In this document: positions 1,041-49,594 of the stretch, piece by piece | How positions within the stretch are numbered: position 1 is the stretch's first letter | Layout: the number at the start of each line of letters is the position of its first letter | Assembly (NCBI RefSeq): GCF_964213995.1 | Contig: NW_027590119.1 | Span: 2,108,001-2,172,000 of the forward strand | Reading direction: 5' to 3' | Length of the DNA stretch: 64,000 nucleotides | Source of the DNA: Mustelus asterias | Lineage: Eukaryota | Translations under genes and position numbers: made by a program | The notes under the pieces: model-generated | Told to the model about the DNA's origin: nothing | The model's input: only the letters and a program-made list of their open reading frames with translations | The model's database searches: none

Positions 1041-1132
1041 GGAGTGGGGGAGGGGACTTTGCAAAATCTCTTCCCATCATTTTCTTCCAAGTCCCGCAGT
1101 TTGATTTGAAACAGAACAGCTTCTGTTTGTAG

Positions 1133-1668
1133 CTTCACCACAGACTCCAACTTCACACACAGACTCCAACTTCACACACAGACTCCAACTTCACACACAG
1201 ACTCCAACTTCACACACAGACTCCAACTTCACACACAGACTCAAACTTCACACAGACTCAAACTTCACCACAGACTCAAACTTCACCACAGACTCAAACT
1301 TCACCACAGACTCAAACTTCACCACAGACTCAAACTTCACCACAGACTCAAACTTCACACACAGACTCAAACTTCACCACAGACTCAAACTTCACCACAG
1401 ACTCAAACTTCACACACAGACTCAAACTTCACCACAGACTCAAACTTCACCACAGACTCAAACTTCACCACAGACTCCAACTTCACCACAGACTCAAACT
1501 TCACACACAGACTCAAACTTCACCACAGACTCAAACTTCACACACAGACTCAAACTTCACACACAGACTCAAACTTCACCACAGACTCAAACTTCACCAC
1601 AGACTCCAACTTCACCACAGACTCAAACTTCACACACAGACTCAAACTTCACACACAGACTCCAACTT
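1133..1668 (+). repeat. 18/19-bp minisatellite ACAGACTC(A/C)AACTTCAC(C/AC)
   Basis: Directly visible tandem array with interspersed unit variants. Confidence 0.95.
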
Positions 1669-2038
1669 CCTCCTCTGGACAACATCTGTGAGGAAAACAC
1701 TTTCTTTCTCCCCCTGGGAAATACAGAGACAGAGAAATTCTCTGGAACTGGAATTAGAGCCAAATATACTGAGGGGGAAATGTTTGTGATTTTGTGGAAC
1801 CTGTTTTTATTGTCCGAGCTTTTTAAAGTGTAATTTATCCTGTCTATTCAAATACTGTTTCTTAATGCATGATTCAGTGATGTTAATTTTAGATTAATTT
1901 TTAAAGTAAAATTTTTTTTAAAATGAAACATTGTCTTTTAGTTTATTCCATTGGGATTTGTGGGAATTTGTTTATTATAAGGTGACCATGAGGATCGTAA
2001 CAACATTGATATGTCTGGTGTTGTTATATGGTGCATAC

Positions 2039-2239
2039 GATGTGGAGATGCCGGTGTTGGACTGAGGTGGGCACAGTAAGAAGTCTCACAACACCTGGTT
2101 AAAGTCCAACGGGTTTATTTGGAATCACGAGCTTTCAGAGCGCTGCTCCTTCTCACCTGATGAAGGGGCAGCGCTGTGAAAGCTTGTGATTCCAAATAAA
2201 CCTGTTGGACTTTAACCTGGTGTTGTGAGACTTCTTACT
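2039..2239. mobile_element. Penelope-derived palindromic insertion, family A (mirror 48434-48634)
   Basis: Inverted arms (AGTAAGAAGTCTCACAACACC... / ...GGTGTTGTGAGACTTCTTACT); TSD ATATGGTGCATA at 2026-2037 and 2240-2251; hammerhead-like core at 2153-2189. Confidence 0.8.
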
Positions 2240-3329
2240 ATATGGTGCATATTAGGTATATTATTTATGGATTTGTATTACAGTTGATGTTGTTTAATTC
2301 CAGAATAGTATTGTAACTACTCTGTATATTTTCCAGTCAAAGAGTCAGCAGAGCACAAGATAAATCAATTCAGCAGCTTGAGTCCGTGCCCAGTCTCTGT
2401 CGGGGAATCCACTCAGTGCCATTTTTCCTCCATATCCCTGTTCCCCAGTACGTTTAATTCCTTCAAGTGCCCGACAAATTTTATTTTGAAATCACTGGTC
2501 GTCTCCACTTCCACCACTCTCATCGTCAGTGAGTTCCAGAACATGATTGCTTGCTCCCTAAGTCAAGTTCTTCCGCATCCATCTGTCATAGAATCATAGA
2601 AACCCTACAGTACAGAAAGAGGCCATTCGGCCCATCGAGTCTGCACCGACCACAATCCCACCCAGGCTCTACCCCCATATCCCTACATATTTTACCCACT
2701 AATCCCTCTAATCTATGCATCCCAGGACACTAAGGGGCAATTTTAACATGGCCAATCAACCTAACCCACACATCTTTGGACTTTAATCTCTAATCTCTAA
2801 TCATGTATCTCTAATCATGTAATAGAGTTCTGAATATTGCTTACATTTTTAGTCCACTAAATATGCAAATTTTTTATATGCTTAGACACAAGCCTGTGTG
2901 AAGATTTCGGGAATATGTGTCCTGTACATGAAACAGTCAGCACGGATCTGTCGATTAGGATGAATCAGCACCCTCAGGACAATGTCTATTTCAGGTCCAG
3001 CAAAGTGAGAATGGAGGGATGAAGGTTTACAAATTTTCAAGAATGAGAGGAAAGAATGTTCCACAGAAACTAGAATTGTCTGTTCTGAGTTTTTATCCTG
3101 GACTGACAGCAATGATTTTTGTGAATTTCTTTCACAGGCTATTAGAAGGGGAGAATTTACAGACACAAATCTCAACAAACATGACGTTAGGATCTGACAG
3201 AGTCACCCAATTATTCAGGATCTGAATACCATCGGCATTTGAAACTAGAATGGGAAATGTTTGTCTGTCCCTTCAAACTGTTTAAACATCAGTGTGACTG
3301 GAAAATCACTGAGACACATTCACTCGAGT

Positions 3330-4396
3330 GAGAGTATTCCAGTGAACTGACTGTGGAAAGAGCTTTAACCAGTTACACAGCCTGGAAAAGATTGAAGGAT
3401 TCACAGTGAGGAGAGGGACCATGTACGTGTTATCTGTGGGGTCAAACCTTCATCTGAACCTGGAGATGTACAAAGACACTCAGACCATGGAAATGTAGGG
3501 ACTGTGGGAAGGGATTCAATTGTCCCTCGAAGCTGGAAACCCTTCGATGCAGCCACACTGTGGAGACACCGTTCACCTGCTCTGAGTTTGGAAGGGGATT
3601 TCGTGATTCATCCACCCTGAGGAATCACCAGCGACTTCACATCAGGGAGAGGCCATTCACCTGCTCTGAGTGTGGGAAGAAATTCAGCGATTCGTCTGCC
3701 CTGCTGACACACCAGCGGGTTCACAATGGGAAGAGACCATTCACCTGTTGTGTGTGTGGAAAGGGATTCACTCAGTCATCTACCCTGCAGAACCACCAGC
3801 GATTTCACACGGGTGAGGGACTGTTCCCCTGCTCAGAGCGTGGGAAGGGATTCACTCACTCATCGCTCCCGCTGACAAACCAACGCATTCACACTGGGCC
3901 GAGGCCATTCATCTGCTCCGAGTGTGGGAAGGGATTCACTCAATTATCTAGTCTGCTGAGACCCAAACGATTACATACTGGGGAAAGGCCATTCATCTGA
4001 TGTGTGTGTGGGAAGTGACTCAGTGAATCATCCAGTCTGCTGGAATACTGAGGCTCCTCCCCCAATAAGGAACCTGTTCAATGCTCTGACTGTGGGAGCT
4101 GCTTTAAAACCTGAGCCTACCTGAGGGTCGACCAGCGCATTCACACTGAGGAGACCCCGTTCAGGCGCTCTCACTGTGCAAAGAGGTTTAGAACATCATC
4201 TGACCTACTGAAACATCAGGGAATTCACATTGAAGAGAGACCCTGATAATTCCACTCACTACCAGGTTGGAAGCTTCTGCCTGAAATTTTATTTTCCCTC
4301 AGTTTCCAAACTGAGACCATTCACCTGCTCAGTGTGTGGGAAAGGATTCACTTGTTCATCCAAGCTGCTGAGACACCATGGCAGTCACACCTATTA
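3330..4396 (+). pseudogene. C2H2 zinc-finger pseudogene
   Basis: Finger repeats with lost Cys/His (CSEF, CSER, NQRIH, PKRLH), an in-frame stop at 3998-4000 and frameshifts. Confidence 0.85.
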
Positions 4397-4519
4397 GTGT
4401 TCTTTCGGATGCTCTGACTGTGGCTGTTAATTATATCAATAGAGGTTAAGTTTATTCAGATGGAGGGCACTGATTAGATAGTTATAATGAGCAGGTACAA
4501 AGTGGGACTCACTAATATC

Positions 4520-5700
4520 AGAACATAAGAACATAAGAAATAGGAGCAGGAGTAGGCCATCTAGCCCCTCGAGCCTGCCCCGCCATTCAATAAGATCATG
4601 GCTGATCTGACGTGGATCAGTACCACTTACCCGCCTGATCCCCATAACCCTTAATTCCCTTACCGATCAGGAATCCATCCATCCGCGCTTTAAACATATT
4701 CAGCGAGGTAGCCTCCACCACCTCAGTGGGCAGAGAATTCCAGAGATTCACCACCCTCTGGGAGAAGAAGTTCCTCCTCAACTCTGTCTTAAACCGACCC
4801 CCCTTTATTTTGAGGCTGTGTCCTCTAGTTTTAACTTCCTTACTAAGTGGAAAGAATCTCTCCGCCTCCACCCTATCCAGCCCCCGCATTATCTTATAAG
4901 TCTCCATAAGATCCCCCCTCATCCTTCTAAACTCCAACGAGTACAAACCCAATCTCCTCAGCCTCTCCTCATAATCCAAACCCCTCATCTCCGGTATCAA
5001 CCTGGTGAACCTTCTCTGCACTCCCTCCAATGCCAATATATCCTTCCTCATATAAGGGGACCAATACTGCACACAGTATTCCAGCTGCGGCCTCACCAAT
5101 GCCCTGTACAGGTGCATCAAGACATCCCTGCTTTTATATTCTATCCCCCTCGCAATATAGGCCAACATCCCATTTGCCTTCTTGATCACCTGTTGTACCT
5201 GCAGACTGGGCTTTTGCGTCTCATGCACAAGGACCCCCAGGTCCCTTTGCACGGTAGCATGTTTTAATTTGTTTCCATTGAGATAGTAATCCCATTTGTT
5301 ATTATTTCCTCCAAAGTGTATAACCTCGCATTTATCAACGTTATACTCCATTTGCCATATCCTCGCCCACTCACTCAGCCTGTCCAAATCTCTCTGCAGA
5401 TCTTCTCCGTCCTCCACACGATTCACTTTTCCACTTATCTTTGTGTCGTCTGCAAACTTCGTTACCCTACACTCCGTCCCCTCCTCCAGATCATCTATAT
5501 AAATGGTAAACAGTTGCGGCCCGAGTACCGATCCCTGCGGCACGCCACTAGTTACCTTCCTCCAACCGGAAAAACACCCATTTATTCCGACTCTTTGCTT
5601 CCTGTCGGATAGCCAGTCCCCAATCCACTTTAACACACTACCCCCAACTCCGTGTGCCCTAATCTTCTTCAGCAGCCTTTTATGGGGCACCTTATCAAAC
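4520..5700 (-). mobile_element. Young 5'-truncated CR1/HER1-type LINE, present only in the left arm
   Basis: Uninterrupted 357-aa RT C-terminus (SGVPQGSVLGP, KFADD, RPQLEYC); 3' tail (TTCTTATG)n; the right arm has the empty site (ACTAATATAACTTGG, near 46330-46346). Confidence 0.93.
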
Positions 5701-5724
5701 GATAAATATAACTTGGAGTCAGAG

Positions 5725-6110
5725 TTGAACCTGTAATGTTTGATTCTGTGAACAAATCTAGACCAAATAAAGATTGACTCCGCCCCAAGGCTGTCAGGAT
5801 TATAACATGGTAACAGAAAATGCTTGTCTTATGGTGAAGGTTGGAAACTAAAAGAAAGTATATTTCAGACGGAAGCTGACAATCCCAGCAGCTTTTGTGA
5901 GAAATGACTGAAAGGCAGTGGGAATTGTCAGGGTCTGATTACCTGCTGATGCTCTCGGAGTCTGAACCATACAACCAGTGGAAGAATGAAGTGGCGATGT
6001 GGACACGGGTTACATCCCGATCAAGGAGGAAACAAGATCTGGCCTTGGCATTGTCACTTCCTAACACAAGGAAAATCAGCAACAAAGCATTTTCTGATCA
6101 GCCAAACTGC
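5725..6110 (+). mobile_element. LTR-retrotransposon remnant: LTR end, primer-binding site and gag N-terminus (mirror at 45960-46320)
   Basis: AATAAA at 5766, ...TATAACA end, then TGGTAACAGA at 5808 (resembles the tRNA-iMet PBS TGGTAGCAGA); short ORF with PYNQWKNEVAMWTRVT...LALALSLP. Confidence 0.55.
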
Positions 6111-8484
6111 AAGTTGATACCTGCACTGGCACGGATGATTCATGTAAAGAATTCACTTCAGGTGGTTGGAGGGTAGAATCCCTGTCAATTGGTCTACGGG
6201 AGAAATCCCAGATTCCCCTCTGTGCCGGGCGATCGCCCTCCTGCTTTAAAGGGATACAATTAGTTCCATTTTCAGTCATCAATTATCTGATTGTTCCATG
6301 AAAAGAATTGCTCGAAGCAACAAATTATTGGAGAAACCAGAAGAGGGTTCCTTCATGTGTAACGTTTGGACTGAAGGAGAAAAAACATCTTTTTCTTCGA
6401 TTTGTTTTGAAACACTGTTTGTGTGAATTTTTGCGATCCCGGTCAGGACTGTTAACGTTTGCAGAGAAATTCGAACACCCAGTGATTAACTGAAAGAATT
6501 ACATCACAAGATTCCACATTTTTAAACAAAAACAAACTTTACTAAAATTTAAAAAGACAACACTACAAATTGAATACTAGTCAATAAAGATTTATGATAT
6601 AAACCGAGTTCTATTTTTTTACCTCACCCCAAGAGTTTCTTTATACTTAATGATATCTTGAAGGTTCATTCACTTCTGTTCCTAGGACCATCCCAAAGGC
6701 ATGTCAAAGCTCTCCACAATTCACTTTAATTCTCCCCAGTACTCCAGATATTCTCCAAGCTCCAAGAGTTAATGGGAATCCATCCATTATCTTTTCACTA
6801 AACAAGCCTCCAATTTTCCTTTAAGCTCTCAAACTGTGGACTCCTCAGTCCAAACATGGGCTTCACTGCATTCTTGCTGAGGCATTTAAATGTGAGAAGC
6901 ACCCCTGGTTCCAACGGACCTCTAGGCTTCTAGTCCCACAGCTGGTTCACAGCTCCTGGTCCCACAACTGGTAGTTTCCAAGCTAACTGCAGACTGTCCA
7001 TTGGAACCAGGTCATTGATTGGAAAGGACTCAAAAGGTTACGGGGAAAAGGCAGGAGAATGGGATTGAGATTTATCAGCCATGATCGAATGGCACAGCAG
7101 ATTCGATGGGCCGAATAGCCTAATTCTGCTCCTATATCTTATGGTCTAATTCTAACCAAGGCTCCACCCTGAATCACATATCCCCATGGTAACAGAGACC
7201 AGGTGGAATATCTGACAGATTTAGCTTCAAAACTAAACCTTTTTTCCCGAGGTCTGCATGAAGAATTCACCGAACAAAAACAGTACAATAATTGTCAGTC
7301 CCAATGTCTCCAGCTAAAAGATCCAGCTGACCTTTTACAGTTCTTACCTCTCGAGTTTTGACTTCTTAAACCAACATGGGCCATGCTTTGTGACTGCGAA
7401 TTCCCTGAGGGTGTTTTCATCAGATTCTCAATCCAGGTTTTCCATTTTTTAAAAGCAATTCTTGCAACTAATTCATATTTCTAAAACATAGGAATTATAA
7501 AATTAGATTTTTGTAACAAAAACAGGAAGAAATGAAAACGTATCACCTTCATAATATCCCATTTAGAATATTACAATATACAACATGCTGTATATCTTAA
7601 CAACAGCCATGATCTTATTGAATGGTGGAGCAGGCTCGAAGGGCCAAATGGCCAACTCCTGTTCCGAAGTCCACTGTTTTCCTATGTTGATCTATCTTAT
7701 AACCTGCAACAGACATAATAATCCCTCCATTGTCCACTTCACATTCACAAGTCCAGCTTGGTAACAGCACACTGCTGGGTTCCATGTCCAGGAATCTCAG
7801 TCCGCTGAAGATGGAAATTACTGTTTGCAGTCTTTTCTGAAAGTTTTCTTCTTTCAGTAATTATAGTCCAAAGTTCCTCCTGCAAAAGGAGAGTCTTCAC
7901 TGCTGTTCATTTGTGAATTTTCAAGTTCTATTTTGAAAACAGTCTGTACAGAGTTCACATTTTGAAATTTATTTTCTTCCATGTTTGTAGTTCCTCCATT
8001 GTTTAAATCCAGAGAGAATATTCCACTCAATTCCACATTGAAACTGTCTTCTCCTTGCTCAGTTATAGCTGATTCCTTTATTGTCCAGGACAATATATTC
8101 ACAATATCTTTAAAACAGAAATTAAACATTCCCATTTGATTTCAGACAGTAACATATTCTGTTCATTTGTTCTTTATTGTCAATGTCAGGCTGGTGTTGT
8201 TCTCCTTGGAGCAAAGGAGGTTGAGGGGAGATTTGATAGAGGTGGACAAGATTCTGACAGGTTTAGATAAGGTGGACAAAGAAAAGCTGTTCCCATTAGC
8301 TGAAGGGACAAGGACGAGGGGGACACAGATTTCTTGTTTTGGGTCAGAGATGCAAGCGGGGAGGGGAGATGTGAGGAAGAATATTCTGATGCAGCGAATG
8401 GTAATGACCTGAAACTCGCTGCCTACGAGGGTGGAGGAAGTGGAGACAATAAACAATTACAAAGGAAATTGGATGAGCATTTGG

Positions 8485-9110
8485 GCTAATGCCCTCCACA
8501 CCAGGCAACATCCTGGTAAATATTTTCCGTACCCTCTCCAAAGCCTCCACATCCTTCTGGTAGTGTGGTGACCAGAATTGAACACTAGATTCCAAGTGCG
8601 GTTTAACTCAGGTTCTATAAAGCTGCAACATGACTTGCCAATTTTTAAACTCAATGCCCCGGCCGATGAAGGCAAGCATGCCGTATGCCTTCTTGACTAT
8701 CTTCCCCACCTGCATTGCCACTTTCAATGACCTGTGTACCTGTACACCCAGATCCCTCTGCCTATCAATACTCTGAAGGGTTCTGCCATTTACTGTATAT
8801 TTCCCATCTGTATTAGACCTTCCAAAATGCATTACCTCACATTTATCCAGATTAAACTTCATCTGCCATCTCTTCGCCCAAGTCTCCAACTGATCTATAT
8901 CCTGCTGTATCCTCTGCCGGTCCCCATCGCTATCCGCAATTCCACCAACCTTTGTGCCGCCCACAAACTTACCAATCAAACCAGTTACATTTTCCTCCAA
9001 ATCATTTATATATATTACAAACATCAAAAGTCCCAGCACTGATCCCTGAGGAACGTCACTTGTCACAGCCCTCCATTCAGAAATGTACCTTTGCACTGCC
9101 AACCTCTGTT
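8485..9110 (-). mobile_element. CR1-type LINE fragment (counterpart 41720-42755, + strand, with intact 3' end)
   Basis: VPQGSVLG, KCEVMHFG and KAYGMLAFI motifs. Confidence 0.85.
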
Positions 9111-9353
9111 TTCTTCTGACTAAATATCTCGAAACTTCCTAACACCTTGTCACTCTGTGATCCTTGTGACATTTGAAACCAGGTATTCACAAAAAGACTC
9201 AAAGAGCATCAGCCCACTGGAGGCTGAGACCAGCCAGTCCAGCACAAAGAAACCCTCTGACCCTTCCCATTGACCAACTGTGAGAATGAACAAAATGCAG
9301 TCCTGGATGCAACTGAGAGCAGAAACAATAACAGCAGAATCCTACCCCGGGAA

Positions 9354-10280
9354 TCACTCGTGAACTTGTTGATGTCTCAGCAGCTGGGATGAAACTCTGA
9401 ATCCCTTCCCACACTGAGAGCAGGTGAACGGCCTCTCCCCAGTGTGAACTCGCTGGTGTGTCTGTAGGTCAGATGAGTTTGTGAATCCCTTCCCACACTG
9501 AGAGCAGATGAATGGTCTCTCCCCAGTGTGGACTCGCTGGTGTATCCTCAGGTGGGATGACCGAATGAATCCCTTCCCACACTGAGAGCAGGTGAACGGT
9601 CTCTCCCCAGTGTGAACTCGCTGGTGTCTCTGCAGGTGGGATGATCGAGTGAATCCCTCCCCACATTGAGAGCAGGTAAATGGTCTCTCCCCAGTGTGAA
9701 CTCGCTGGTGTGACTGCAGGTTGGATGACCAAGTGAATCCCTCCCCACACTGAGAGCAGGTGAATGGCCTCTCCCCAGTGTGAACTCGCTGGTGTGTCTG
9801 CAGGCTGGATAACTGAGTGAATCCCTTCCCACACTGAGAGCAGATGAACGGCCTCTCTCCAGTGTGAACTCGCTGGTGTCTCTGCAGGCTGGATAACTCA
9901 ATGAATCCCTTCCCACACTGAGAGCAGGTGAACGGCCTCTCCCCAGTGTGAACTCGCTGGTGTGTCTGCAGACTGGATAACTGAGTGAATCCCTTCCCAC
10001 ACTGAGAGCAGGTGAATGGCCTCTCCCCAGTGTGAACTCGCTGGTGTGTCCGCAGGTGGGATAACCGAGTAAATCCCTTCCCACACTGAGAGCAGGTGTA
10101 TGGCCTCTCCCCAGTGTGAACTCGCTGGTGTGTCCGTAAGCTGGATAACTGATTAAATCCCTTCTCACACTGAGAGCAGGTGAATGGCCTCTCCCCAGTG
10201 TGGCTGCGCCGATGAACTTCCAGCTCTGATGGGGCTCTGTATCTCTTCCCACAGTCCACACATTTCCATGGTTTCTCCAT
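9354..10280 (-). CDS. C2H2 zinc-finger protein, 11 tandem fingers, no KRAB or other effector domain in the ORF
   Basis: Begins MEKPWKC at the ATG at 10280; eleven CxxC-12-HxxxH units with TGERPF linkers. Confidence 0.88.
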
Positions 10281-10994
10281 GATGCAGGTGTCCTTGCCTC
10301 TCTCTTGGGTGGACAATTAGTTGAAACTTCGTCCACACACAGAACAAGATTACAGTCTCGACCCGCTGTGAATGGTGTGATATTTATTCAGACTGTGTAA
10401 CTGGTTAAAGCTCTTTAGTCAGTGCAGTGGAACACACTCACTCAAGTGTGGCAGAGTGTTGATGCTTTTTCACTCACACTGACATTTCAAATCTTTTCAA
10501 ATCGACAGACTGGACAATCATTTCTCCTCCTGGATTCAAAGTTCGATGATATTGAGATCCCAAGGGATATGACTCTGTCACGTCTAGACGTGATGTTTGA
10601 GATTTCGGCCTGTGATTCCTCAAGATCCTGTAAAATGAGTTTCCAAAAGTCATCAGTGTCAGTGCAGGATAGAAATTCAGAACAGACAATTTCTATGGAA
10701 CATTCTTTCCTCTCTCATTCCCCAAAAGCTGTAAATCTCCATCCCACACACTCTCTCCCCATTCTCAGCAGGTCTGGCAGCATCTGTATGGAGAGAAAAG
10801 AACTGATGTTTCAGAGCTTTGACAAAGGGTCATCTTGACAAGAAACATCAGCTCTTTTCTCTCCTTACAAATGCTGCTAGAACTGCTGAGATTTTCCAGC
10901 ATTTTCTCTCTTGGTTTCAGATTCCAGCATCCGCAGTAATTTGCTTTTATAAGGCTGCAGATACCTCCTCCCAAGTAACATGCGTGTGCCCAAG

Positions 10995-12028
10995 ACATCA
11001 TCACTTGTTTCCCTTATTTCTTTAGCACCCATGGTGCTCTCCGCAGTAAACACAGAGGAGAAGTATTCATTAAAAATCTTACCCATCTCCTGTGGCTCCA
11101 CACACAGATGGCCATACTGATTTTTAAGGGGATCTATTCTCTCTCTAGCCACCCTTTTACTCTTAATATAGCTATAGAACCTCTTGGAATTTTCTTTAAT
11201 CTTACCTGCCAGATCCATATCATACCCTCTTTTTGTCCTCCTGATTTCCCTCCTCAGTATTTTCTTACACTTTTTATAGTCAGAGTGATTCACTTGTCCC
11301 CGATTGCCGAAACCCAATGTATGCTTCCTTCTTTTACCTGACCAGAGCCTCAATGTCCCTTGTCTGCCAGAGATCCTTAAATTTACCATTATTTCCCTTC
11401 ACCTTAACAGGAATATACTGCCCCTGGACTCTTGATATCACACTTTTAAAACCTCCCATTTGCCAGTCATTCCTTTCCCTTCAAACAAACTCACCGAATC
11501 GACATCTGCTCGATCCTGCCTAATGCCCACAAAAGTGGCCCTGCTCCAGTTTAGGGCCTTGACCTGTGGACCTGTCCTATTTTTTTCCAGAACTATTTTG
11601 AAACTATTGGTGCTCCCAATAGTGCTCCCTGACTGACACTTCAGTCACTTGCTCCACCTCGTTTCTTAACTGTCTAATAGAAAGTGAGTCCAGGAATTGA
11701 TGATGAAAAATAAGGAGCTGGGAGATGAATTGAACAAGTATTTTGCCTCGGTCTTCACAATAGAGGATACAGTTAAAACTCAGAAACAGCTGGAAATCAG
11801 AAAACAGAAGTGTGGGATGAACTCTGAAAAAGCACAATTCCCAGGGAAGTGGTCCTCAGCAAACTGTTGGAGCTGTGGGCTGATGAGTCCTCGGGTCCTG
11901 CTGGGCTTCATTCTCGGGTCCTGCTGGGCTTCATTCTCGGGTCCTGCTGGGCTTCATTCTCGGGTCCTGCTGGGCTTCATTCTCGGGTCTGAACAGAGGG
12001 AGATAGTTGATGTTGTTCAATTTTCTTA
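10995..12028. mobile_element. Degraded CR1-type LINE fragments in both orientations (mirrored at 39291-40300)
   Basis: IKENSKRFYSYIKSKR...NEYFSSVFT on the minus strand; ELNKYFASVFT on the plus strand. Confidence 0.75.
11891..11989 (+). repeat. 23-bp tandem repeat, about 4 copies (single copy in the right arm near 39331-39360)
   Basis: TCGGGTCCTGCTGGGCTTCATTC repeated. Confidence 0.9.
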
Positions 12029-12029
12029 A

Positions 12030-12300
12030 CCGTCCGTCGCCATTACCCTCACTGCGCATGCTTCAGGTCCCGCCCCTCATTCACTCCGATTGGTTGGAGG
12101 ACCAGCCGCTCCCGCTCGGTCATCCAGCCCCGCCCCCTCTTCCTATTGGCCTGGAGCTGCCGTCAATCAGTCCCGGGGCATTGTGACGTGGAGCATGCGC
12201 AGTGTCATTGCTGTCCTTGGCGCTTGTTTGTCCCGGAGAAGCGGAGTCAGCGTTAGGCGGTGGCTGGGAGGATTTGGAAACACTTTGTGGATCCGCAAAC
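12030..12300. promoter_or_regulatory. CpG-rich promoter-like region (mirrored at 36270-36520)
   Basis: NRF1-like TGCGCATGC/GCATGCGCA, GC boxes CCGCCCC, inverted CCAAT (ATTGG), TGACGT. Confidence 0.55.
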
Positions 12301-21116: not shown

Positions 21117-21155
21117 CACAGAGACACAGAGCTGGGCTGAACCTGTACAAAAACT
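21117..21155 (+). other. 23-RSS of V1
   Basis: Heptamer CACAGAG 21117-21123, 23-nt spacer, nonamer ACAAAAACT 21147-21155. Confidence 0.92.
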
Positions 21156-34813: not shown

Positions 34814-34866
34814 TGAAAATGAAAATAACTAATATAGCAGCTAGCTCCGTCCTGAGTTTAATTAAT

Positions 34867-36763: not shown

Positions 36764-36901
36764 TGACGTCACAATGGAATGGGTGAGGGTGTGACGTCAC
36801 AATGGAATGGGTGAGAGTGTGACGTCGCAATGGAATGGGTGAGGGTGTGACGTCACAATGGAATGGGTGAGAGTGTGAGGTCACAATGGAATGGGTGAGG
36901 G
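36764..36901 (+). repeat. 28-bp tandem repeat carrying TGACGTCA, 5 copies
   Basis: TGACGTCACAATGGAATGGGTGAG(A/G)GTG units. Confidence 0.9.
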
Positions 36902-38066: not shown

Positions 38067-38630
38067 GATTGACAGATCCATCCTCACTGCTTCCTGTCCT
38101 GGATGCAGAGAGCTGAAAATTTCCATGCAGGCTGCCAGACAGATATATGTCGACATTTTTGGAGTAACAATGTGTGGAATATACAGACCGAATTCACTCC
38201 ATTTCCTTCAGTTGCTGCAAGTCCCCAATTTCCCCCAGAATGAGAAAAGAAATGGAAAGGGGGAAACATTGATTTCCTCCCAGATGTTGCCCTCTTTTTA
38301 GGTCAAACCAAATAAACAAACTCAGATGAAGTCGGGACAAAAGAGGAGGGAGTTTCACTCTGAAGCTCATTGGACAATTTCCGCATTGTGACATCACAAT
38401 GGAGTCCTGCCTGATTCAGCCAATCGGAGTCACTCCGGTCCGCGGTGACGTCTCCGGGTTCCAGTGCGCAGGCCCGGGCGGGTGGACCTGGGAGCCCCGC
38501 CCCCACCCATTGTTCCCCTCCCCCTACACCACATCGAGCCAAGCTTTCCAGGCAACCGGCTGACAGTTTCGGCCAGAGCGAGAAGCCGCTCCGTGATCTT
38601 CCCCTCCCCCCGGCATGTGCGGGGTAGAGG
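38066..38630 (+). repeat. Direct-orientation paralog of the 195-685 ZNF 5'/promoter block
   Basis: TGATTGACAGATCCAT... and CCAGTGCGCAGGCCCGGGCG...GGCCAGAGCGAGAAGCCGC are shared. Confidence 0.8.
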
Positions 38631-40970
38631 GGAAGCTGCGCATGTGCAGGGGAGAACCCACCCTCTGATCTTCATGCTGAGGTGTTGACCAATGGGAAGA
38701 GTTGGAGGACCGGAAGGACTCTGGTCTTCCAGCCAAGCAGAACGTGGGCTTTGTGTGAATGAAGATTAATCTTCAGACAGACTCAAACTTCCCAAAAAAA
38801 AGACCCTAGTAATCACATTCTCATTTGATGTTTTTAAGTTTCCTTTGTACTTTGATTTTTGTGCGGGCTGTTCCCCCTCCTTTTGGGGAGCTGCCCCTTT
38901 TACTTTGTCCTGACTTAACTTGAGTTTGTTTATTTGGTTTGACCTTAAAAGAGGCCAATAGTGAGTAAAACACTTTCTTTTCAACCCCCTTTCCATTTCT
39001 TTTCTCATTCTGGGGGAAATTGGGGACTTGCAGCAACTGAAGGGAAAGGAAGTGAATCCAGGGAATGTGCAGACTCAGGTTTCTCTCTCTCTCAAACCAG
39101 AAAATGATCCATTTCTGCCCACTGTTTGCTGTTAGCCAATCTTCTATCCACGCCAATATGTTATCCCCACAGCATGAATTTTTATTTGCTGCAATAACCT
39201 TTGATGTGGCACCTCATCAAATGTCTTCTGGAAATCTAAGTACAGCGCATCCACCGGTTTCCCTTTATCCAATTCCCGATGGGGAATTTTAGAAAATTGA
39301 ACAACACATCAACTATCTCACTCTGTTAAGACCCGAGAATGAAGCCCAGCAGGACCCGAGGACTCATCAGCCCACAGCTCCAACAGTTTGCTGAGCACCA
39401 CTTCCCTGGGAATTGTGCTTTTTCAGAGTTCATCCCACACTTCTGTTTTCTGATTTCCAGCTGTTTCTGAGTTTTAACTGTATCCTCTATTGTGAACACC
39501 GAGGCAAAATACTTGTTCAATTCATCTCCCAGCTCCTTATTTTTCATTATCAATTCCTGGACTCACTTTCTATTAGACAGTTAAGAAATGAGGTGGAGCA
39601 AGTGACTGAAGTGTCAGTCAGGGAGCACTATTGGGAGCACCAATAGTTTCAAAATAGTTCTGGAAAAAGATCGGACAGGTTCACAGGTCAAGGCCCTAAA
39701 CTGGAGCAGGGCCACTTTTGTGGGCATTAGGCAGGATCTAGCAGATGTCGATTAGGTGAGTTTGTTTGAAGGGAAAGGAATGACTGGCAAATGGGAGGTT
39801 TTAAAAGTGTGATATCAAGAGTCCAGGGGCAGTATATTCCTGTTACGATGCAGGGAAAGAATGGTAAATTTAGGGATCTCTGGCAGACAAGGGACATTGA
39901 AGCTCTGGTCAGGTAAAAGAAGGAAGCAGACATTGGGTTTAGGCAATCGGGGACAAGTGAATCACTCTGACTATAAAAAGTGTAAGAAAAAACTGAAGAG
40001 GGAAATCAGGAGGACAAAAAGAGGGGACGATATGGATCTGGCAGGTAAGATTAAAGAAAATTCCAAGAGGTTCGAGAGCTATATTAAGAGTAAAAGGGTG
40101 GCTAGAGAGAGAATAGATCCCCTTAAAAATCAGTATGGCCATCTGTGTGTGGAGCCACAGGAGATGGGTGAGATTTTTAATGAATACTTCTCCTCTGTGT
40201 TTACCGCGGAGAGCACCATGGGTGTAAAAGAAATAAGGGAAACAAGTGATGTCTTGGGCACACGCATGTTACTTGGGAGGAGGTATCTGCAGCCTTATAA
40301 AAGCAAATTACTGCGGATGCAGGAATTTGAAACCAAGAGAGAAAATGCTGGAAAATCTCAGCAGGTCTGGCAGCATCTGTAAGGAGAGAAAAGAGCTGAT
40401 GTTTCTTGTCTCGATGACCCTTTGTCAAAGCTCTGAAACATCAGTGCTTTTCTCTCCATCCAGATGCTGCCAGACCTGCTGAGAATGGGGAGAGTGTGTG
40501 TGGGATGGAGATTTACAGCTTTTGGGGAATGAGAGAGGAAAGAATGTTCCATAGAAATTGTCTGTTCTGAATTTCTATCCTGTACTGACACTGATGACTT
40601 TTGTAAACTCATTTTACAGGATATTGAAAGAGGAATCACAGGCCGAAATCTCAAACGTCACGTCTAGACGTGACAGAATCATATTCCTTGGGACCTCAAT
40701 ATCATCGGACTTTGAATCCAGAAGGAGAAATGATTGTCCAGTCTGTCAATTTGAAAAGATTTGAAATGTCAGTGTGAGTGAAAAAGCATCAACACACTGC
40801 CATACTCGAGTGAGAGTGTTCCAATGCACTGACTAAAGAGCTTTAACCAGTTACACAGCCTGAATAAATATCACACCATTCACAGCGGGTAGAGACTGTA
40901 ATCTTGTCCTGTGTGTGGACGAAGTTTCAACTGATTGTCCACCCAAGAGAGAGGCAAGGTCACCTGCACC

Positions 40971-41477
40971 ATGGAGAAACCATGGAAATGTGCGGACTGT
41001 GGGAAGAGATACAGAGCCCCATGTCTGCTGGAAGCTCATCGGCGCAGCCACACTGGGGAGAGACCATTCACCTGCTCTCAATGTGGGAAGGGATTCATTC
41101 AGTCATCCCACCTGCAGTCACACCAGCGAGTTCACACTGGAGAGAGGCCATTCACCTGCTCTCAGTGTGGGAAGGGATTCACTCAGTTATCCAGCCTGCA
41201 GACACACCAGCGAGTTCACACTGGGGAGAGGCTGTTCACCTGCTCTCAGTGTGGGAAGGGATTCACTCGGTTACCCGACCTGCGGACACACCAGCGAGTT
41301 CACACTGGGGAGAAACCATTCATCTGTTCTCAGTGTGGGAAGGGATTCACTCGGTCATCCACCCTGCTGACACATCAGCCAGTTCACACTGGGGAGACAC
41401 CATTCACCTGCTGTCAGTGTGGAAAGGGTTTCAGCGTTTCATCCCGGCTGCTGAGACACCAGCGAGTTCACGAGTGA
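40971..41477 (+). CDS. C2H2 zinc-finger protein, 6 fingers (inverted-duplicate counterpart of 9354-10280)
   Basis: ATG of MEKPWKC at 40971; six fingers; flanks are the reverse complement of those of the 11-finger gene. Confidence 0.85.
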
Positions 41478-41719
41478 TGACAGGGGTTGGATTCTGCTGT
41501 TATTGTTTCTGCTCTCAATTACATCCAGGACTGCATTTTGTTCATTCTCACAGTTGGTCAATGGGGAGGGTCAGAGGGTTTCTTTCTGCTGGACTGGCCG
41601 GTCTCAGCCTCCAGGGCGCTGATGCTCTTTGAGTCTTTTTGCGAATACCTGGTTTCAAATGTCACGAGGATCACAGAGTGACAGGGTGTTAGGAAGTTTA
41701 GAGATATTTAGTCAGAAGA

Positions 41720-42755
41720 AAACAGAGGTTGGCAGTGCAAAGGTACATTTCTGAATGGAGGGCTGTGACAAGTGACATTCCTCAGCGATCAGTGCTGGGA
41801 CTTTTGCTGTTTGTAATATATATAAATGATTTGGAGGAAAATGTAACTGGTTTGATTGATAAGTTTGTGGACGACACAAAGGTTGGTGGAATTGCGGATA
41901 GCGATGGGGACCGGCAGAGGATACAGCAGGATATAGATCAGTTGGAGACTTGGGTGGAGAGATGGCAGATGAAGTTGAATCCGGACAAATGTGAGGTAAT
42001 GCATTTTGGAAGGTCTAATACAGATGGGAAATATACAGTAAATGGCAGAACCCTTAAGAGTATTCATAGGTAGAGGGATCTGGGTGTACAGGTGCACAGG
42101 TCATTGAAAGTGGCAATGAGATGGAGAAGATAATCAAGAAGGCATACGGCATGCTTGCCTTCATCGGCCGGGGCATTGAGTTTAAAAATTGGCAAGTCAT
42201 GTTGCAGCTTTATAGAACCTTTGTTAGACCGCACTTGGAATCTAGTGTTCAATTCTGGTCACCACACTACCCGGAGAATGTGGAGGCTTTGGAGAGGGTA
42301 CGGAAAATATTTATCAGGATGTTGCCTGGTGTGGAGGGCATTAGCTATGAGGAGAGTTGGAGAAACTTGGTTTGTTCTCACTGGAACGACGGAGGTTGAG
42401 GAGGGCGACTTGATGGAAGTCTACAAGATTATGACAGGTTGGACAGAGTGGATACTCAGAAGCTTTTTCCCAGGGTGGAAGAGCCAGTTACTGGGGGGCA
42501 TAGGTTTAAGGTGCGAGGGGCAAGGTTTAAAGGAGATGTACGAGGCAGGTTTTTTACACAGAGGTTGGTGGGTGCCTGGAACTCATTGCCGGGGAAGGTA
42601 GTGGAAGCAGATACGATAGTGACTTTAAGATGTGTCTTGACAAATATATGAATAGCATAGGAATAGAGGGATATTGTCCCCGGAAAGGTAGGGGGTTTTA
42701 GTTCAGACGGGCAGCATGGTTGCTACAGGCTTGGAGGGCCTGTTTCTGTGCTGTA
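41720..42755 (+). mobile_element. CR1-type LINE 3' portion
   Basis: KFVDDTKVGG, RPHLESSVQFWSP and 3' UTR. Confidence 0.85.
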
Positions 42756-42764
42756 ATTTTATAG

Positions 42765-43293
42765 AGAATTGAATAGAATCCCTACAGTACAGAAGGAGGC
42801 CATTCGGCCCATCGAGTCTGTACCGACCACAATCCCACCCACGCCCTACTCCCGCAAGTTCACACATTTGCTAATCCCCCTGACACTAGGATCGGCATGG
42901 GGCGCTAAGGGGCGGCACGGTAGCACAGTGGTTAGCACTGCTGCTTCACAGCACCAGGGTCCCGGGTTCGATTCCCGGCTCAGGTCACTGTCTGTGTGGA
43001 GTTTGCACATTCTCCTCGTGTCTGCGTGGGTTTCCTCCGGGTGCTCCGGTTTCCTCCCACAGTCCAAAGATGTGCGGGTTAGGTTGATTGGCCAGGTTAA
43101 AAATTGCCCCTTAGAGTCCTGAGATGCGTAGATTAGTGGGATTAGCGGGTAAATATGTGGGGGTAGGGCCTGGGTGGGATTGTGGTCGGTGCAGACTCGA
43201 TGGGCCGAATGGCCTCCTTCTGCACTGTAGGGTTTCTATGATTCTATGATCAATTTAGTATGGCCAATCAACCTAACCTGCACATCTTTGGAC
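42765..43293. mobile_element. Full-length + strand HE1-type SINE (about 42911-43250) nested in a minus-strand SINE
   Basis: The minus-strand SINE stops near 42910 and resumes at 43251 (CAATTTAGTATGGCCAATCAACC). Confidence 0.8.
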
Positions 43294-46200
43294 ATTTATT
43301 GGTGAAACTAACAATGCAATAACACGAAGGGCCGATAAAACAGGTGGATGTGATCATCAACAGAGCCCAATTCCCTAAACCTTTTTCATATAGACTTTCA
43401 CCCGTGCCCTCCTGGCGACCCCACAACATCTCCATCTCCCGTGGTCCAGCGCCACATCAACACGTCCCCCCAGGATGCACATCAGAACTGGAGGCAGCCA
43501 GCTGCACTCCGCACCCATTTGCCTGTGATGCCCCTGGCAGGCGTCTGCTGGAGAGCTGGGACCTAGAGGGGTCCAGCCGTCTTCCTGGTGATATGGATGT
43601 ATCCTTGCCTTGCTGTTCACCCTGCTGCTCTTGAGATGCACCGGTGTCAGGAAAGGCGGAGTCGGAAAGCCCTGCATCCCATCGGCCGGAATCCCCCGGG
43701 TGGAACGCCCCAGCACCGTCCCCAGGCCCCCCTCCTCCCTCGAGGCGCCAATGGACCCCTGGGTCATTCCGTGGGACGGTGAAGCTGACCTGGGGGAGGG
43801 AGTGGTGATTGGGAAATTCTGCAGGGGTGGTGATTGAGGAGGGGGTTAGGGGGGGGAGCTCTGCAGGAGTCCTGATGGGGGAGGGAGCTGGTGATCGGGG
43901 AAACTCTGCAGGGGTGGTGATCGGGGAGGGGGCGAGAGGGGGAACTCTCCTGGACAATAAAGGAATCAGCTATAACTGAGCAAGAAGTCGGTTTAAATGT
44001 GGAATTGAGTGGAATTTTCTCTCTGGATTTAAACAATGGAGAAACTGCAAACATGGAAGAAAATACATTTCAAAATGTGAACTCTGTACAGACTGTTTTC
44101 AAAATAGAACTTGAAAATTCACAAATGAACAGCAATGAAGACTCTCCTTTTGCAGGAGGAACTTTGGACTATAATTATTGTAAAAAGAAAACCGTCAGAA
44201 AAGACTGCAAGCAGTAATTTCCATCTTCAGTGGACTGAATTCCTGGACATGGAACCCAGCAGTGTGCTGTTACCAAGCTGGACTTGTGAATGTGAAGTGG
44301 ACAATGGAGGGATTATTATGTCTATTGCAAGTTATAAGATAGATCAACATAGGAAAACAGTGGATTTAGGAACAGGAGGAGGCCATTTGGCCCTTCGAGC
44401 CTGCTCCACCATTCAATAAGATCATGGCTGTTGTTAAGATATACAGCATGTTGTATATTGTAATATTCTCAATGGGATATTATGAAGGTGATACATTTCC
44501 ATTTCTTCCTGTTTTTGTTACAAAAATCTAATTTTATAATTCCTATGTTTTAGAAATAAGAATTAGTTGCAAGAATTGCTTTAAAAAATGGAAAACCTGG
44601 ATTGAGAATCTGACAAAAACACCCTCAGGGAATTCGCAGTCACAAAGCATGGCCCATGTTGGTTTAAGAAGTCAAAACTTGAGAGGTAAGAACTGTAAAA
44701 GGTCAGCTGGATCTTTTAGCTGGAGACATTGGGACTGACAATTATTGTACTGTTTTTGTTAGGTGAATTCTTCATGCAGAGCTCAGGAAAAAAGGTCTAA
44801 TTTTGAAGCTGAATATCTGTTCGATATTCAATCGTCTCTGTTACCATGGGGATATGTGATTCAGTGTGGACCCTTGGTTAGAATTAGACCATAAGATAGA
44901 GGAGCAAAATTAGGTTATTCGGCCCATCGAATCTGCTGTGCCATTCGATCATGGCTGATAAATCTCAATCCCATTCTCTTGCCTTTTCCCCGTAACCTTT
45001 TGAGTCCTTTCCAATCAATGACCTGCTTCCAGCGGACAGTCTGCAGTTAGCTTGGAAGCCACCAGTTGTGGGACCAGGAGCTGTGAACCAGCTGTGGGAC
45101 TAGAAGCCTAGAGGACCATTAGAAACCAGGGGTGTTTCCAACATTTAAATCCCTCAGCAAGAATGCAGTGAAGCCCATGTTTGGACTGAGGAGTCCACAG
45201 TTTGAGAGCTTAAAGGAAAATTGGAGGCTTGTTTAGTGAAAAGATAATGGATGGATTCCCATTAACTCTTGGAGCTTGGAGAATATCTGGAGTACTGGGG
45301 AGAATTAAAGTGAATTGTAGAGAGCTTTGACATACCTTTGGGATGGTCCTGGGAACAAAAGTGAATGAACCTTGAAGATATCATTAAGTATAAAGAAACT
45401 CTTGGGGTGAGGTAAAAAAATAGAACTAGGTTTATATCATAAATCTTTATTGAGTGTAGCATTCAATTTGTAGTGTTGTCTTTTTAAATTTTATTTAAGC
45501 ATACAGTAAAGTTTGTTGTTGTTTAAAAATGCAGAATCTTGTGATGTAATTCTTTCAGTTAATCACTGGGTGTTCGAATTTCTCTGCAAACGTTAACAGT
45601 CCTGACCGGGATCGCAAAAGTTCACACAAACAGTGTTTCAAAACAAATCGAAGAAAAAGATGTTTTTTCTCCTTCAGTACAAACATTACACATGAAGAGA
45701 CCCTCTTCTGGTATCTCCAATAATTTGTTGCTTCGAGCAATTCTTTTCATGGAACAATCAGATAATTGATGACTGAAAATGGAACTAATTGTATTCCTTT
45801 AAAGCAGGAGGGCGATCGCCCGGCACAGAGGGGAATCTGGGATTTCTCCCATAGACCAATTGACAGGGATTCTACCCTCCAACCACCTGAAGTGAATTCT
45901 TTACATGAATCATCCGTGCCAGTGCAGTTATCAACTTGCAGTTTGGCTGATCAGAAAATGCTTTGTTGCTGATTTTCCTTGTGTTAGGAAGTGACAATGC
46001 CAAGGCCAGATCTTGTTTCCTCCTTGATCGGGATGTAACCCGTGTCCACATCGCCACTTCATTCGTCCACTGGTTGTATGGTTTAGACTCCGAGAGCATC
46101 AGCAGGTAATCAGACCCCGACAATTCCCACTGCCTTTCAGTCATTTCTCACAAAAGCTGCTGGGATTGGAAGCTTCCGTCTGAAATATACTTTCTTTTAG

Positions 46201-46462
46201 TTTCCAACCTTCACCATGAGACAAGCATTTTCTGTTACCATGTTATAATCCTGACAGCCTTGGGGTGGAGTCAATCTTTATTTGGTACAGATTTGTTCAC
46301 AGAATCAAACATTACAGGTTCAACTCTGACTCCAAGTTATATTAGTGAGTCCCACTTTTTACCTGCTCATTATAACTATCTAATCAGTGCCCTCCATCTG
46401 AATAAACTTAACCTCTATTGATATAATTAACAGCCACAGTCAGAGCATCCGAAAGATCACTA

Positions 46463-47550
46463 ATAGGTGTGACTGCCATGGTGTGTCAGCAGCTTGGGTG
46501 AACAAGTGAATCCTTTCTCACACACTGAGCAGGTGAATGGTCTCAGTTTGGAAACAAAGGGAAAATAAAATTTCAGGCAGAAGCTTCCAATCTGGTAGGT
46601 TTTATGAGAAATCGCTGAAAGTGAGTGGGAATTATCAGGGTCTCTCCCCAGTGTGAATTCCCTGATGTTTCAGTAGGTCAGATGATGTTCTAAACCTCTT
46701 TGCACAGTGAGAGCGCCTGAACGGGGTCTCCTCAGTGTGAATGCGCTGGTCGACCCTCAGGTAGGCTCAGGTTTTAAAGCAGCTCCCACAGTCAGAGCAT
46801 TGAACAGGTTTCTTATTGGGGGAGGTGCCTCAGTATTCCAGCAGACTGGATGATTGACTGAGTCACTTCCCACACACACATCAGATGAATGGCCTTTCCC
46901 CAGTGTGTAATCGTTTGTGTCTCAGCAGACTAGATAATTGAGTGAATCCCTTCCAACACTCGGAGCAGATGAATGGCCTCGGCCCAGTGTGAATGCGTTG
47001 GTTTGTCAGCGGGAGGGATGAGCGAGTGAATCCCTTCCCACGCTCTGAGCAGGGGAACAGTCCCTCACCCGTGTGAAATCGCTGGTGATTCTGCAGGGTA
47101 GATGACTGAGTGAATCCCTTTCCACACACACAACAGGTGAATGGTCTCTCCCCATTGTGAACCCGCTGGTGTGTCAGCAGGGCAGACGAATCGCTGAATT
47201 TCTTCCCACACTCAGAGCAGGTGAATGGCCTCTCCCTGATGTGAAGTCGCTGGTAATTCCTCAGGGTGGATGAATCACGAAATCCCCTTCCAAACTCAGA
47301 TCAGGTGAACGGTGTCTCCACAGTGAGGCTGCATCGAAGGGTTTCCAGCTTCGAGGGACAATTGAATCCCTTCCCACAGTCCCTACATTTCCACGGTCTG
47401 AGTGTCTTTGTACATCTCCAGGTTCAGATGAAGGTTTGACCCCACAGATAACACATACATGGTCTCTCTCCTCACTGTGAATCCTTCAATCTTTTCCAGG
47501 CTGTGTAACTGGTTAAAGCTCTTTCCACAGTCAGTTCACTGGAATACTCT
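46463..47550 (-). pseudogene. C2H2 zinc-finger pseudogene (inverted copy of 3330-4396)
   Basis: Reverse complement of the left-arm pseudogene, sharing the same stop and most lesions. Confidence 0.85.
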
Positions 47551-49002
47551 CACTCGAGTGTCTGTGTCTCAGTGATTTTCCAGTCACACTGATGTTTAAA
47601 CAGTTTGAAGGAACAGACAAACATTTTCCATTCTAGTTTCAAATGCCGATGGTATTCAGATCCTGAATAATTGGGTGACTCTGTCAGATCCTAACGTCAT
47701 GTTTGTTGAGATTTGTGTCCGTAAATTCTCCCCTTCTAATAGCCTGTGAAAGAAATTCACAAAAATCATTGCTGCCAGTCCAGGATAAAAACTCAGAACA
47801 GACAATTCTAGTTTCTGTGGAACATTCTTTCCTCTCATTCTTGAAAATTTGTAAATCTCCATCCCAAACACTCTCCCTCCATTCTCACTTTGCTGGACCT
47901 GAAATAGACATTGTCCTGAGGGTGCTGATTCATCCTAATCGACAGATCCGTGCTGACTGTTTCATGTACAGGACACATATTCCTGAAATCTTCACACAGG
48001 CTTGTGTCTAAGCATATCAAAAATTTGCATATTTAGTGAAGTAAAAATGTATGCAATATTCAGCACTCTATTACATGATTAGAGATACAGATGGGTGCGG
48101 AAGAACTTGACTTAGGGAGCAAGCAATCATGTTCTGGAACTCACTGACGATGGGAATGGTGGAAGTGGAGACGACCAGTGATTTCAAAATAAAATTGGTC
48201 GGGCACTTGAAGGAATTAAACATACTGGGGAACAGGGATAGCGAGGAAAAATGGCACTGAGTGGATTCCCCGACAGAGACTTGGCACGGACTCAAGCTGC
48301 TGAATTGATTTATCTTGTGCTCTGCTGACTCTTTGACTGGAAAATATACAGTGTAGTTACAATACTATTCTGGAATTAAACAACATCAACTGTAATACAA
48401 ATCCATAAATAACATACCTATTATGCACCATATAGTAAGAAGTCTCACAACACCAGGTTAAAGTCCAACAGGTTTATTAGGAATCACAAGCTTTCAGAGT
48501 GCTGCCCCTTCATCAGGTGAGAAGGAGCAGCGCTTTGAAAGCTCGTGATTCCAAATAAACCCATTGGACTTTAACCAGGTGTTGTGAGACTTCTTACTGG
48601 GCCCACCCCAGTCCAATACCGGCATCTCCACATCATATGCACCATATAACAACACCAGACATATCAATGTTGTTACGATCCTCATGGTCACCTTATAATA
48701 AACAAATTCCCACAAATCCCAATGGAATAAACTGAAAGACAATGTTTCATTTTTTTTAAATTTTACTTTAAAAATTAATCTAAAATTAACATCACTGAAT
48801 CATGCATTAAGAAACAGTATTTGAATAGACAAGATAAATTACACTTTAAAAGTTCAGACAATAAAAACAGGTTCCACAAAATCACAAACATTTCCCCCTC
48901 ACTATATTTAGCTCTAATTCCAGTTCCAGAGAATTTCTCTGTCTCTGTATTTCCCAGAGGGAGAAAGAAAGTGTTTTCCTCACAGATGTTGGCCAGAGGA
49001 GG

Positions 49003-49516
49003 AAGTTTGAGTCTGTGTGTGAAGTTTGAGCCTGTGGTGAAGTTTGAGTCTGTGGTGAAGTTTGAGTCTGTGGTGAAGTTTGAGTCTGTGGTGAAGTTTG
49101 AGTCTGTGTGTGAAGTTTGAGTCTGTGGTGAAGTTTGAGTCTGTGTGTGAAGTTTGAGTCTGTGTGTGAAGTTTGAGTCTGGTGAAGTTTGAGTCTGTGG
49201 TGAAGTTTGAGTCTGTGGTGAAGTTTGAGTCTGTGGTGAAGTTTGAGTCTGTGGTGAAGTTTGAGTCTGTGGTGAAGTTTGAGTCTGTGGTGAAGTTTGA
49301 GTCTGTGGTGAAGTTTGAGTCTGTGTGTGAAGTTTGAGTCTGTGTGTGAAGTTTGAGTCTGTGTGTGAAGTTTGAGTCTGTGTGTGAAGTTTGAGTCTGT
49401 GGTGAAGTTTGAGTCTGTGGTGAAGTTTGAGTCTGTGGTGAAGTTTGAGTCTGTGGTGAAGTTTGAGTCTGTGGTGAAGTTTGAGTCTGTGGTGAAGTTT
49501 GAGTCTGTGGTGAAGC
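49003..49516 (-). repeat. Inverted copy of the 18/19-bp minisatellite
   Basis: (GTGAAGTTTGAGTCTGTG)n. Confidence 0.95.
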
Positions 49517-49594
49517 TAAAGACAGAAGCTGTTCTGTTTCAAATCAAACTGCGGGACTTGGAAGAAAATGATGGAAAGAGATTTTGCAATCCCC

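Follow-up and report, generated by a model that had tools for sequence, protein, structure and literature searches.

In humans, 72% of the sequence-resolved balanced inversions carry flanking inverted repeats (10.1101/2021.12.20.472354), and the segmental duplications or low-copy repeats at such inversions (10.1101/2021.12.20.472354; PMC3961182) offer a parallel to the locus reported here. This locus is a pair of inverted arms enclosing two variable (V) segments of T-cell receptor (TCR) type, V1 and V2, in a 64,000-nucleotide stretch of the genome of the shark Mustelus asterias (contig NW_027590119.1, positions 2,108,001 to 2,172,000; the whole stretch is hereafter the window, numbered from its first letter). 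It shares with the human repeats a size above 1 kb, an identity above 90%, the inverted orientation, a unique spacer of tens of kilobases and a geometry permissive for non-allelic homologous recombination (NAHR). It differs in that the shark arms align over 9.1 kb in pieces of 2.4 kb at most, with a longest perfect tract of 167 bp, and are known here from one haplotype.

Mouse KZFP clusters grow through the duplication of blocks, and one mouse strain has an inversion of the non-KZFP genes lying between two such clusters (PMC12575710). The likeness to the shark locus lies in multi-gene zinc-finger (ZNF) blocks with embedded repeats, layers of different age, changes in finger number, pseudogenes and, between the mouse clusters, invertible bystanders; the locus differs in consisting of shark genes, in being rich in long and short interspersed nuclear elements (LINEs and SINEs) rather than endogenous retroviruses, and in having TCR V segments and tRNA genes as bystanders. 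Inverted duplications of antigen-receptor loci (avian IGH, 10.64898/2026.09.05.749481; mammalian IG/TR, PMC12288031, where long-range inversions are also noted) resemble it in their V-region location and in V segments found on both strands. However, the avian duplications contain V genes (10.64898/2026.09.05.749481), whereas the shark arms hold no V gene or V-associated recombination signal sequence (RSS). Because its arms lack V genes, the shark duplication adds nothing to the V repertoire and does not account for V1 and V2 lying in opposite directions. Human IGK is reportedly a further inverted duplication in an antigen-receptor locus. Drosophila staggered-break inversions (PMC3355041) likewise leave a unique segment with an inverted copy on either side, one of them eroded by deletions, but in the shark both novel-looking junctions fall on one arm. 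In the mostly open-access literature searched, including the available parts of PMC5931798 and PMC12227049, nothing was found that describes how V segments are oriented, or interleaved with ZNF genes, in shark TCR alpha/delta loci.

Set beside these systems, the locus is an inverted segmental duplication of an ordinary kind, lying in a zinc-finger cluster, to which the V segments are bystanders; the potentially invertible cassette proposed in the preliminary description of this DNA is possible but unsupported. We give a probability of about 0.72 to an old inverted segmental duplication in a C2H2 ZNF cluster interleaved with TCR alpha/delta-type V segments, with the left arm as parent, no detected conversion, no net flip of the spacer and the V segments as bystanders.

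The inverted arms and their divergence

Self-BLAST and global alignment of the window bear out the inverted homology that had been noticed around the V1/V2 pair, which joins 1052-12544 to 49594-36002.

1052-12544, plus strand: left arm, 11,493 bp, probably the parent copy (self-BLAST, global alignment, junction anatomy)
36002-49594, minus strand: right arm, 13,593 bp, inverted and probably the daughter copy (self-BLAST, global alignment, repeats at junctions)
12545-36001, no strand: spacer, 23,457 bp, the segment inverted by any crossover between the arms

The arm length of about 11 kb given at the outset fits the left arm but not the unequal right one, and the 23.5-kb spacer agrees with the measured value; the spacer grows to ~27 kb if an isolated 515-bp inner block is not counted. 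The homology forms a chain of collinear inverted blocks (left side 1052-2586, 2804-4518, 5705-8090, 8485-11920, 11959-12029 and 12030-12544, against 49594 down to 36002) with per-block BLAST identities of 93-97%. It is far above chance, several blocks of 1.3-2.4 kb having E=0, and the longest collinear block is 2.4 kb. When the left arm is aligned globally with the reverse complement of the right arm, omitting the non-homologous 8091-8484, 322 mismatches are found in 9,146 aligned columns (96.5% identity; Kimura two-parameter distance 0.036), distributed as 184 transitions and 138 transversions, with 50 of the 322 being CpG transitions. Four perfect tracts measure at least 134 bp, the longest 167 bp, and none is of at least 200 bp. 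With kilobase indels in addition, "near-identical" overstates the likeness of the arms. They nevertheless exceed the 1 kb and 90% identity, each a minimum, by which segmental duplications are defined (PMC11794170), and the block copied includes genic, non-repeat content, namely two ZNF genes and a promoter block that are collinear along the anti-diagonal and inverted.

Both arms carry zinc-finger genes of C2H2 type: each has a degenerate ZNF-A, and ZNF-B on the left corresponds to ZNF-D on the right; a further gene, ZNF-C, lies in the spacer.

3250-4500, plus strand: ZNF-A, degenerate C2H2 gene with stops and lost Cys/His; right copy at about 46350-47640, minus strand
9354-10316, minus strand: ZNF-B, open C2H2 exon with 11 fingers, left arm
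40935-41477, plus strand: ZNF-D, partner of ZNF-B in the right arm, 6 fingers in an open exon
28266-30586, minus strand: ZNF-C, spacer, 10 fingers, exon 29303-30181
12030-12544, plus strand: inner promoter-like block, GC-rich, 515 bp, 97.3% identical to 36518-36002

ZNF-A is broken in the same way in both arms, and ZNF-C is a paralogue of the ZNF-B block, older and in direct orientation (86-94% identity). Since older ZNF paralogous blocks in both orientations share the window at 75-94% identity (ZNF-C 86-94%, a gene end at 1-238 88-93%, a promoter pair 75%), duplication has been repeated in this region, and the inverted arm pair is its youngest layer.

The arms are further distinguished by insertions and deletions:

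2584-2803, no strand: SINE-type insertion of 220 bp, left arm only, with an empty site in the right arm
4514-5704, minus strand: 5'-truncated CR1-type LINE of 1,191 bp, left arm only, with a 403-aa reverse transcriptase frame (RVT_1) and a 5-bp target-site duplication; the corresponding right-arm site is empty
11890-11958, plus strand: expansion of a 23-bp unit, 69 bp, left arm only
1133-1669, plus strand: 18-bp tandem array common to both arms, right counterpart at 49002-49515
36519-39287, no strand: right-only block of 2,769 bp with a head-to-head ZNF promoter and a ZNF-D exon-1-like piece
42346-43947, no strand: right-arm block with no left homologue (against left 8091-8484), made of a LINE 3' end, SINEs and an unrelated GC-rich piece

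The CR1-type and SINE-type insertions and the 69-bp expansion had all been noticed before and are confirmed, whereas the 2,769-bp block, the 1.6-kb non-homologous right block and the five additional fingers of the left arm had been overlooked. The 2,769-bp block was most likely deleted from the left arm, which is the polarity we infer. CR1, SINE and Tx1 are names that we take to fit these repeats; the computed evidence consists of RVT_1 and zf-RVT domains and of dispersed copies in the window.

Gene conversion between the arms, also suggested at first, finds no support in 5,000 permutations from which the 18-bp array and the finger exon were excluded. The longest perfect tract of 167 bp compares with 169 expected under random placement of mutations (P=0.46), eight tracts of at least 100 bp compare with 7.3 expected (P=0.45), and the dispersion of mismatches along the arms gives P=0.11. 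Because tract lengths match random placement there is no signal of recent conversion, and the excess likeness and long perfect tracts of conversion-maintained palindromes are absent from these arms.

Junctions of the arms and probable direction of copying

The four ends of the arms differ in what they interrupt:

49595-50198, minus strand: CR1-type LINE cut at the right outer junction, ending 150-200 bp before its tail, with G-rich microhomology at the join
35923-36001, plus strand: dispersed-repeat fragment cut at the right inner junction, 90% identical over 50 bp to 37953-37904
12976-13045, plus strand: ZNF-family pre-exon element, aligned with the left-arm inner promoter block, 72-75% identical to four family copies
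400-1051, no strand: CpG island with a head-to-head ZNF promoter, CpG o/e 0.78, outside the left arm and uncopied in the right arm

At the right outer junction, all four of the other aligned CR1-type copies run past the point of truncation, and at the right inner junction the element at 37953-37904 runs ~230 bp beyond the cut. The left inner junction is followed by the pre-exon element, which scores 33-49 in local alignment against shuffle maxima of 28-30 with each of three queries (500 shuffles); with three of three queries (200 shuffles each) it is absent from the right flank. The left outer junction falls inside a head-to-head ZNF promoter layout with a match at 38192-39057, and the CpG island at 400-1051, for which we infer promoter function, is flanked by mirrored exon-like pieces at 402-437 (outside the arm) and 1664-1699 (inside the arm). 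Both right-arm junctions thus cut retroelement-type repeats and both left-arm junctions continue ZNF gene anatomy. Because of this asymmetry, the left arm is probably the parent and the right arm probably a template-switch copy.

In the corresponding scenario, a block of ~13 kb would have been copied, in inverted orientation, to a position 23 kb distant, where the copy replaced the DNA between two tail-to-tail repeats. Copying would most likely have proceeded by replication template switching (fork stalling and template switching or microhomology-mediated break-induced replication, FoSTeS/MMBIR) with short microhomology, a process able to produce such a replacement (PMC2583991). The arms would later have diverged independently by insertions and deletions, with conversion undetected. 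As both ancestral-looking junctions are on one arm, the sequenced haplotype shows no sign of a net flip of the spacer, which corresponds to zero or an even number of crossovers. No flank exchange (chimeric arms) is observed either, assuming that the visible junctions are original.

Several points weigh against this reading. The assignment of parent and daughter takes the visible junctions as original, and later deletions in the right arm could mimic the pattern. The evidence at the left inner junction is a match of 65-70 bp at 72-75% judged with mononucleotide shuffles only, and that at the right inner junction hangs on a single longer repeat copy. Divergence varies between blocks from 2.4 to 4.6%, with a borderline six-block homogeneity test (P=0.062), and in a 238-column three-way segment the right copy has 16 differences to ZNF-C against 15 to the left copy; old patchy conversion between the copies is therefore possible. 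The data represent a single haplotype, in which a flipped allele carried by other animals would be invisible. In humans, inversion recurrence is predicted by repeat length and not by identity, and L1 pairs with a median identity of 97.2% flank real inversions (10.1101/2021.12.20.472354).

Two further ideas about the origin of these sequences were rejected. The elements at 12976-13045 and 34036-33885 are not halves of one ZNF gene split by an older inversion, the piece near 34 kb having its own GC-rich promoter-like start, and an RSS-driven origin of the arms is dismissed on finding no near-consensus RSS at the arm ends.

Possible inversion, breakage or assembly artefact

The preliminary description proposed that recombination between the arms flips the spacer. 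The geometry allows it, with ~9 kb of inverted homology at 96.5% identity in arms just 23-27 kb apart. Human inversions of like size are flanked by such repeats and are often recurrent (10.1101/2021.12.20.472354; PMC3961182), recurrence being common among human inversions (PMC3961182). Close spacing may relax the requirement for perfect matching (PMC2583991), and in the mouse, bystander genes that separate two KZFP clusters have been found inverted (PMC12575710). Nevertheless, a segregating or recurrent inversion polymorphism generated by NAHR is unlikely. For meiotic NAHR to be efficient in humans, the figure quoted is 300-500 bp of unbroken identity, to which close repeats provide exceptions, and in mouse cells recombination drops 20-fold from 232 to 134 bp (PMC2583991). 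The shark spacer has the flanking inverted repeats, but their longest perfect tract falls short of this length and even of 200 bp. A human inversion with repeats of 94% identity, HsInv0209, has a 782-bp core at 99.9% (PMC3961182) that finds no equivalent in these arms. There is moreover no conversion signal, the position of both ancestral-looking junctions on a single arm shows no net flip, and no other evidence supports one. The arms remain a weak, passive substrate for non-allelic recombination, with exchange possible at a low rate, as between any repeats of this sort.

The arms might alternatively be the scar of a one-off staggered-break inversion, that is, the duplication product of a flip, or have undergone a single crossover after the duplication. 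Staggered breaks leave inverted duplications at both breakpoints, one of which is eroded later by deletions (PMC3355041). However, after a staggered break or an odd number of crossovers each arm should have one ancestral and one novel junction, which is not observed, and the missing CR1 3' end should then be found at the left inner junction, where 12545-13049 has no CR1 match and holds instead the ZNF pre-exon element. We regard this origin as improbable.

Immune loci are hard to assemble (PMC12090573), and divergent haplotypes or a misjoin could have been placed in inverted orientation by the assembly. This is highly improbable for the present arms. The only run of N in the window is at 58124-58263, and the gap-free stretch 1-58123 contains both arms, each with unique flanks on both sides (four distinct flanks). 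Shark alleles usually differ far less than the 3.5% substitution divergence seen here, and a fold-back read would yield arms of near 100% identity. The excess of transitions (184 versus 138), the 50 CpG transitions, the scarcity of 1-bp homopolymer indels (4 of the 43 indels between the arms), the several kilobase indels and the retro-insertions with empty partner sites all point to divergence in the genome, and the junctions cut repeats in the manner of rearrangements. The initial view of a real duplication rather than a read artefact thus holds.

V segments and neighbouring genes

Five V-like segments are found in the window, none of them inside the arms, and all four RSSs found have a 23-bp spacer (23-RSS). 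Two tRNA-like genes and a retrotransposon of the spacer are listed with them.

20810-21155, plus strand: V1, V exon of TCR alpha/delta type with a 23-RSS at 21117, probably a pseudogene
21878-22435, minus strand: V2, intact-looking TCR alpha-type V with a 19-codon leader, a phase-1 intron, an open V exon and a perfect-consensus 23-RSS at 21916
RSS at 53480, plus strand: V3, V-like, outside the right arm
near 56054, minus strand: V4, truncated, V-like, outside the right arm
RSS at 57707, plus strand: V5, V-like, outside the right arm
21229-21301, minus strand: tRNA-Glu(TTC)-like gene, 51.9 bits, between the facing V1/V2 RSSs
21604-21677, minus strand: tRNA-Gln(TTG)-like gene, 47.5 bits, between the facing V1/V2 RSSs
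14844-17880, minus strand: non-LTR (long terminal repeat) retrotransposon with two frames, RVT_1 and zf-RVT, called Tx1 at first

The early account of the spacer stands for V1 on the plus strand, V2 on the minus strand, the RVT_1/zf-RVT element and the ZNF gene, except that V1 is probably a pseudogene. It has no intact leader, the sole leader-like frame ending at a GT donor having two stops and the nearest ATG being at 20515, and the conserved Trp of its WYRQ motif is replaced by Arg. Multi-domain antibody constructs occupy the top rows of its structure matches, in which the best natural chains are TCR alpha. A homologue search with the V1 exon gave no match among two candidates. V2 has a V-set domain, a leader exon and a 23-RSS and is closest to TRAV, as expected of a TCR alpha/delta V gene; its nearest solved structures are TCR alpha chains (best E 3.6e-12), and it alone of the pair looks functional. 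V1 and V2 share 32 of 87 residues (37% amino-acid identity), and the pair was therefore not made by the arm duplication.

In V4 (55700-56300, minus strand), a truncated pseudogene, a leader-like exon and the opening half of a V domain give way to repeat-like sequence with no second Cys or RSS. V5 (57355-57745, plus strand) shows no evident leader intron, a leader-like Met and the V domain sharing a single open frame, and its 23-RSS has 3 mismatches; an intronless V leader would be unusual. Between 20810 and 62561, V segments of four divergent families (34-42% identity) lie in mixed orientation among ZNF, tRNA and GPR139-like genes. No J or C segment was recognised within the 64-kb window.

A programmed or somatic switch, RAG-made or site-specific, that flips the V pair in lymphocytes has next to no chance of being correct, despite the two V segments with facing RSSs in the spacer, since both RSSs have 23-bp spacers and by the 12/23 rule do not join each other, none of the arm ends has a near-consensus RSS (the relaxed matches found within the arms differ from it at 4 positions), no recombinase gene was found among the open reading frames examined, and the decaying arms are unlike a maintained switch.

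It had also been suggested that a flip would swap which of V1 and V2 rearranges by deletion or by inversion. This is weakened by the state of V1: because it has neither an intact leader nor the conserved Trp, a flip would reorient one usable V. V segments lie on both strands of the region even in its present orientation. The V segments are bystanders. Whether a V is joined by deletion or by inversion, the coding joint is the same, and this would apply to V2. Salmon use TRAV segments of the two orientations at similar rates (PMC8559430), and at mouse Igk and Igh orientation decides between linear RAG scanning and diffusion capture, strong RSSs allowing inversional joining (PMC13190342). The consensus RSS of V2 would blunt an effect of orientation, and an effect on the repertoire is conceivable but would be small. 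That the spacer would segregate in both orientations and alter the use of V2, as a germline inversion allele from ZNF-cluster repeats tuning the shark TCR alpha/delta repertoire, seems very improbable.

Both tRNA genes are found within the 800 bp that separate the facing 23-RSSs (21117-21916), where genes transcribed by RNA polymerase III (Pol III) and adjoining an RSS could alter accessibility or form a barrier. A ~40-bp direct repeat is present at 13408-13447 and 14519-14558; its second copy lies directly against the spacer retrotransposon, at the poly(A)-like end, and it is possibly the target sequence of this element. Beyond the right arm, the frame 61539-62561 encodes a GPR139-like receptor 99% identical to a Mustelus asterias protein, 119 of the 120 matches listed being named elasmobranch proteins.

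Each arm has probably lost one promoter from its ZNF genes. The exon-1/promoter block of ZNF-B, with its 11 intact fingers, most likely went with the 2.77-kb deletion, and the gene now abuts the back side of another promoter-like block (9354-12544); the right copy of ZNF-A (46350-49594) was duplicated without its CpG island. The first and last fingers of ZNF-B have 5 and 3 nucleotide differences to ZNF-C, against 6 and 8 to its arm partner ZNF-D, and the internal fingers of ZNF-B, ZNF-C and ZNF-D do not map one to one, which suggests finger shuffling or faster change of ZNF-D. No KRAB appears among 25 of the 31 Pfam families listed for the finger exon, no search having been aimed at KRAB. A small local inversion lies upstream of ZNF-C (30560-30917): a 26-bp pre-exon stretch is direct at 30561-30586 and inverted at 30882-30907, and the upstream intron piece is inverted. 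The remnant of a ZNF-type gene at 33740-34340 (minus strand) has its own CpG-rich start and pre-exon and no finger exon. Short tandem arrays of 38-bp, 23-bp and 28-bp units, GC-rich or CRE-like, occupy promoter-like regions at 745-1020, 22648-22760 and 36764-36902; CRE-like and similar motif names are what we take these units to resemble.

Zinc-finger clusters and antigen-receptor regions commonly contain inverted segmental duplications, and as found the present one is of little significance. Its value is modest and lies in the map, which places shark TCR alpha/delta-type V segments among a fast-duplicating ZNF cluster, tRNA genes and a GPR139-like receptor. This interleaving of V and ZNF sequences offers a route for shuffling V orientation. 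Should the spacer exist in both orientations, the locus would offer a natural experiment, in cartilaginous fish, on RAG scanning and on whether the orientation of a V affects its usage.

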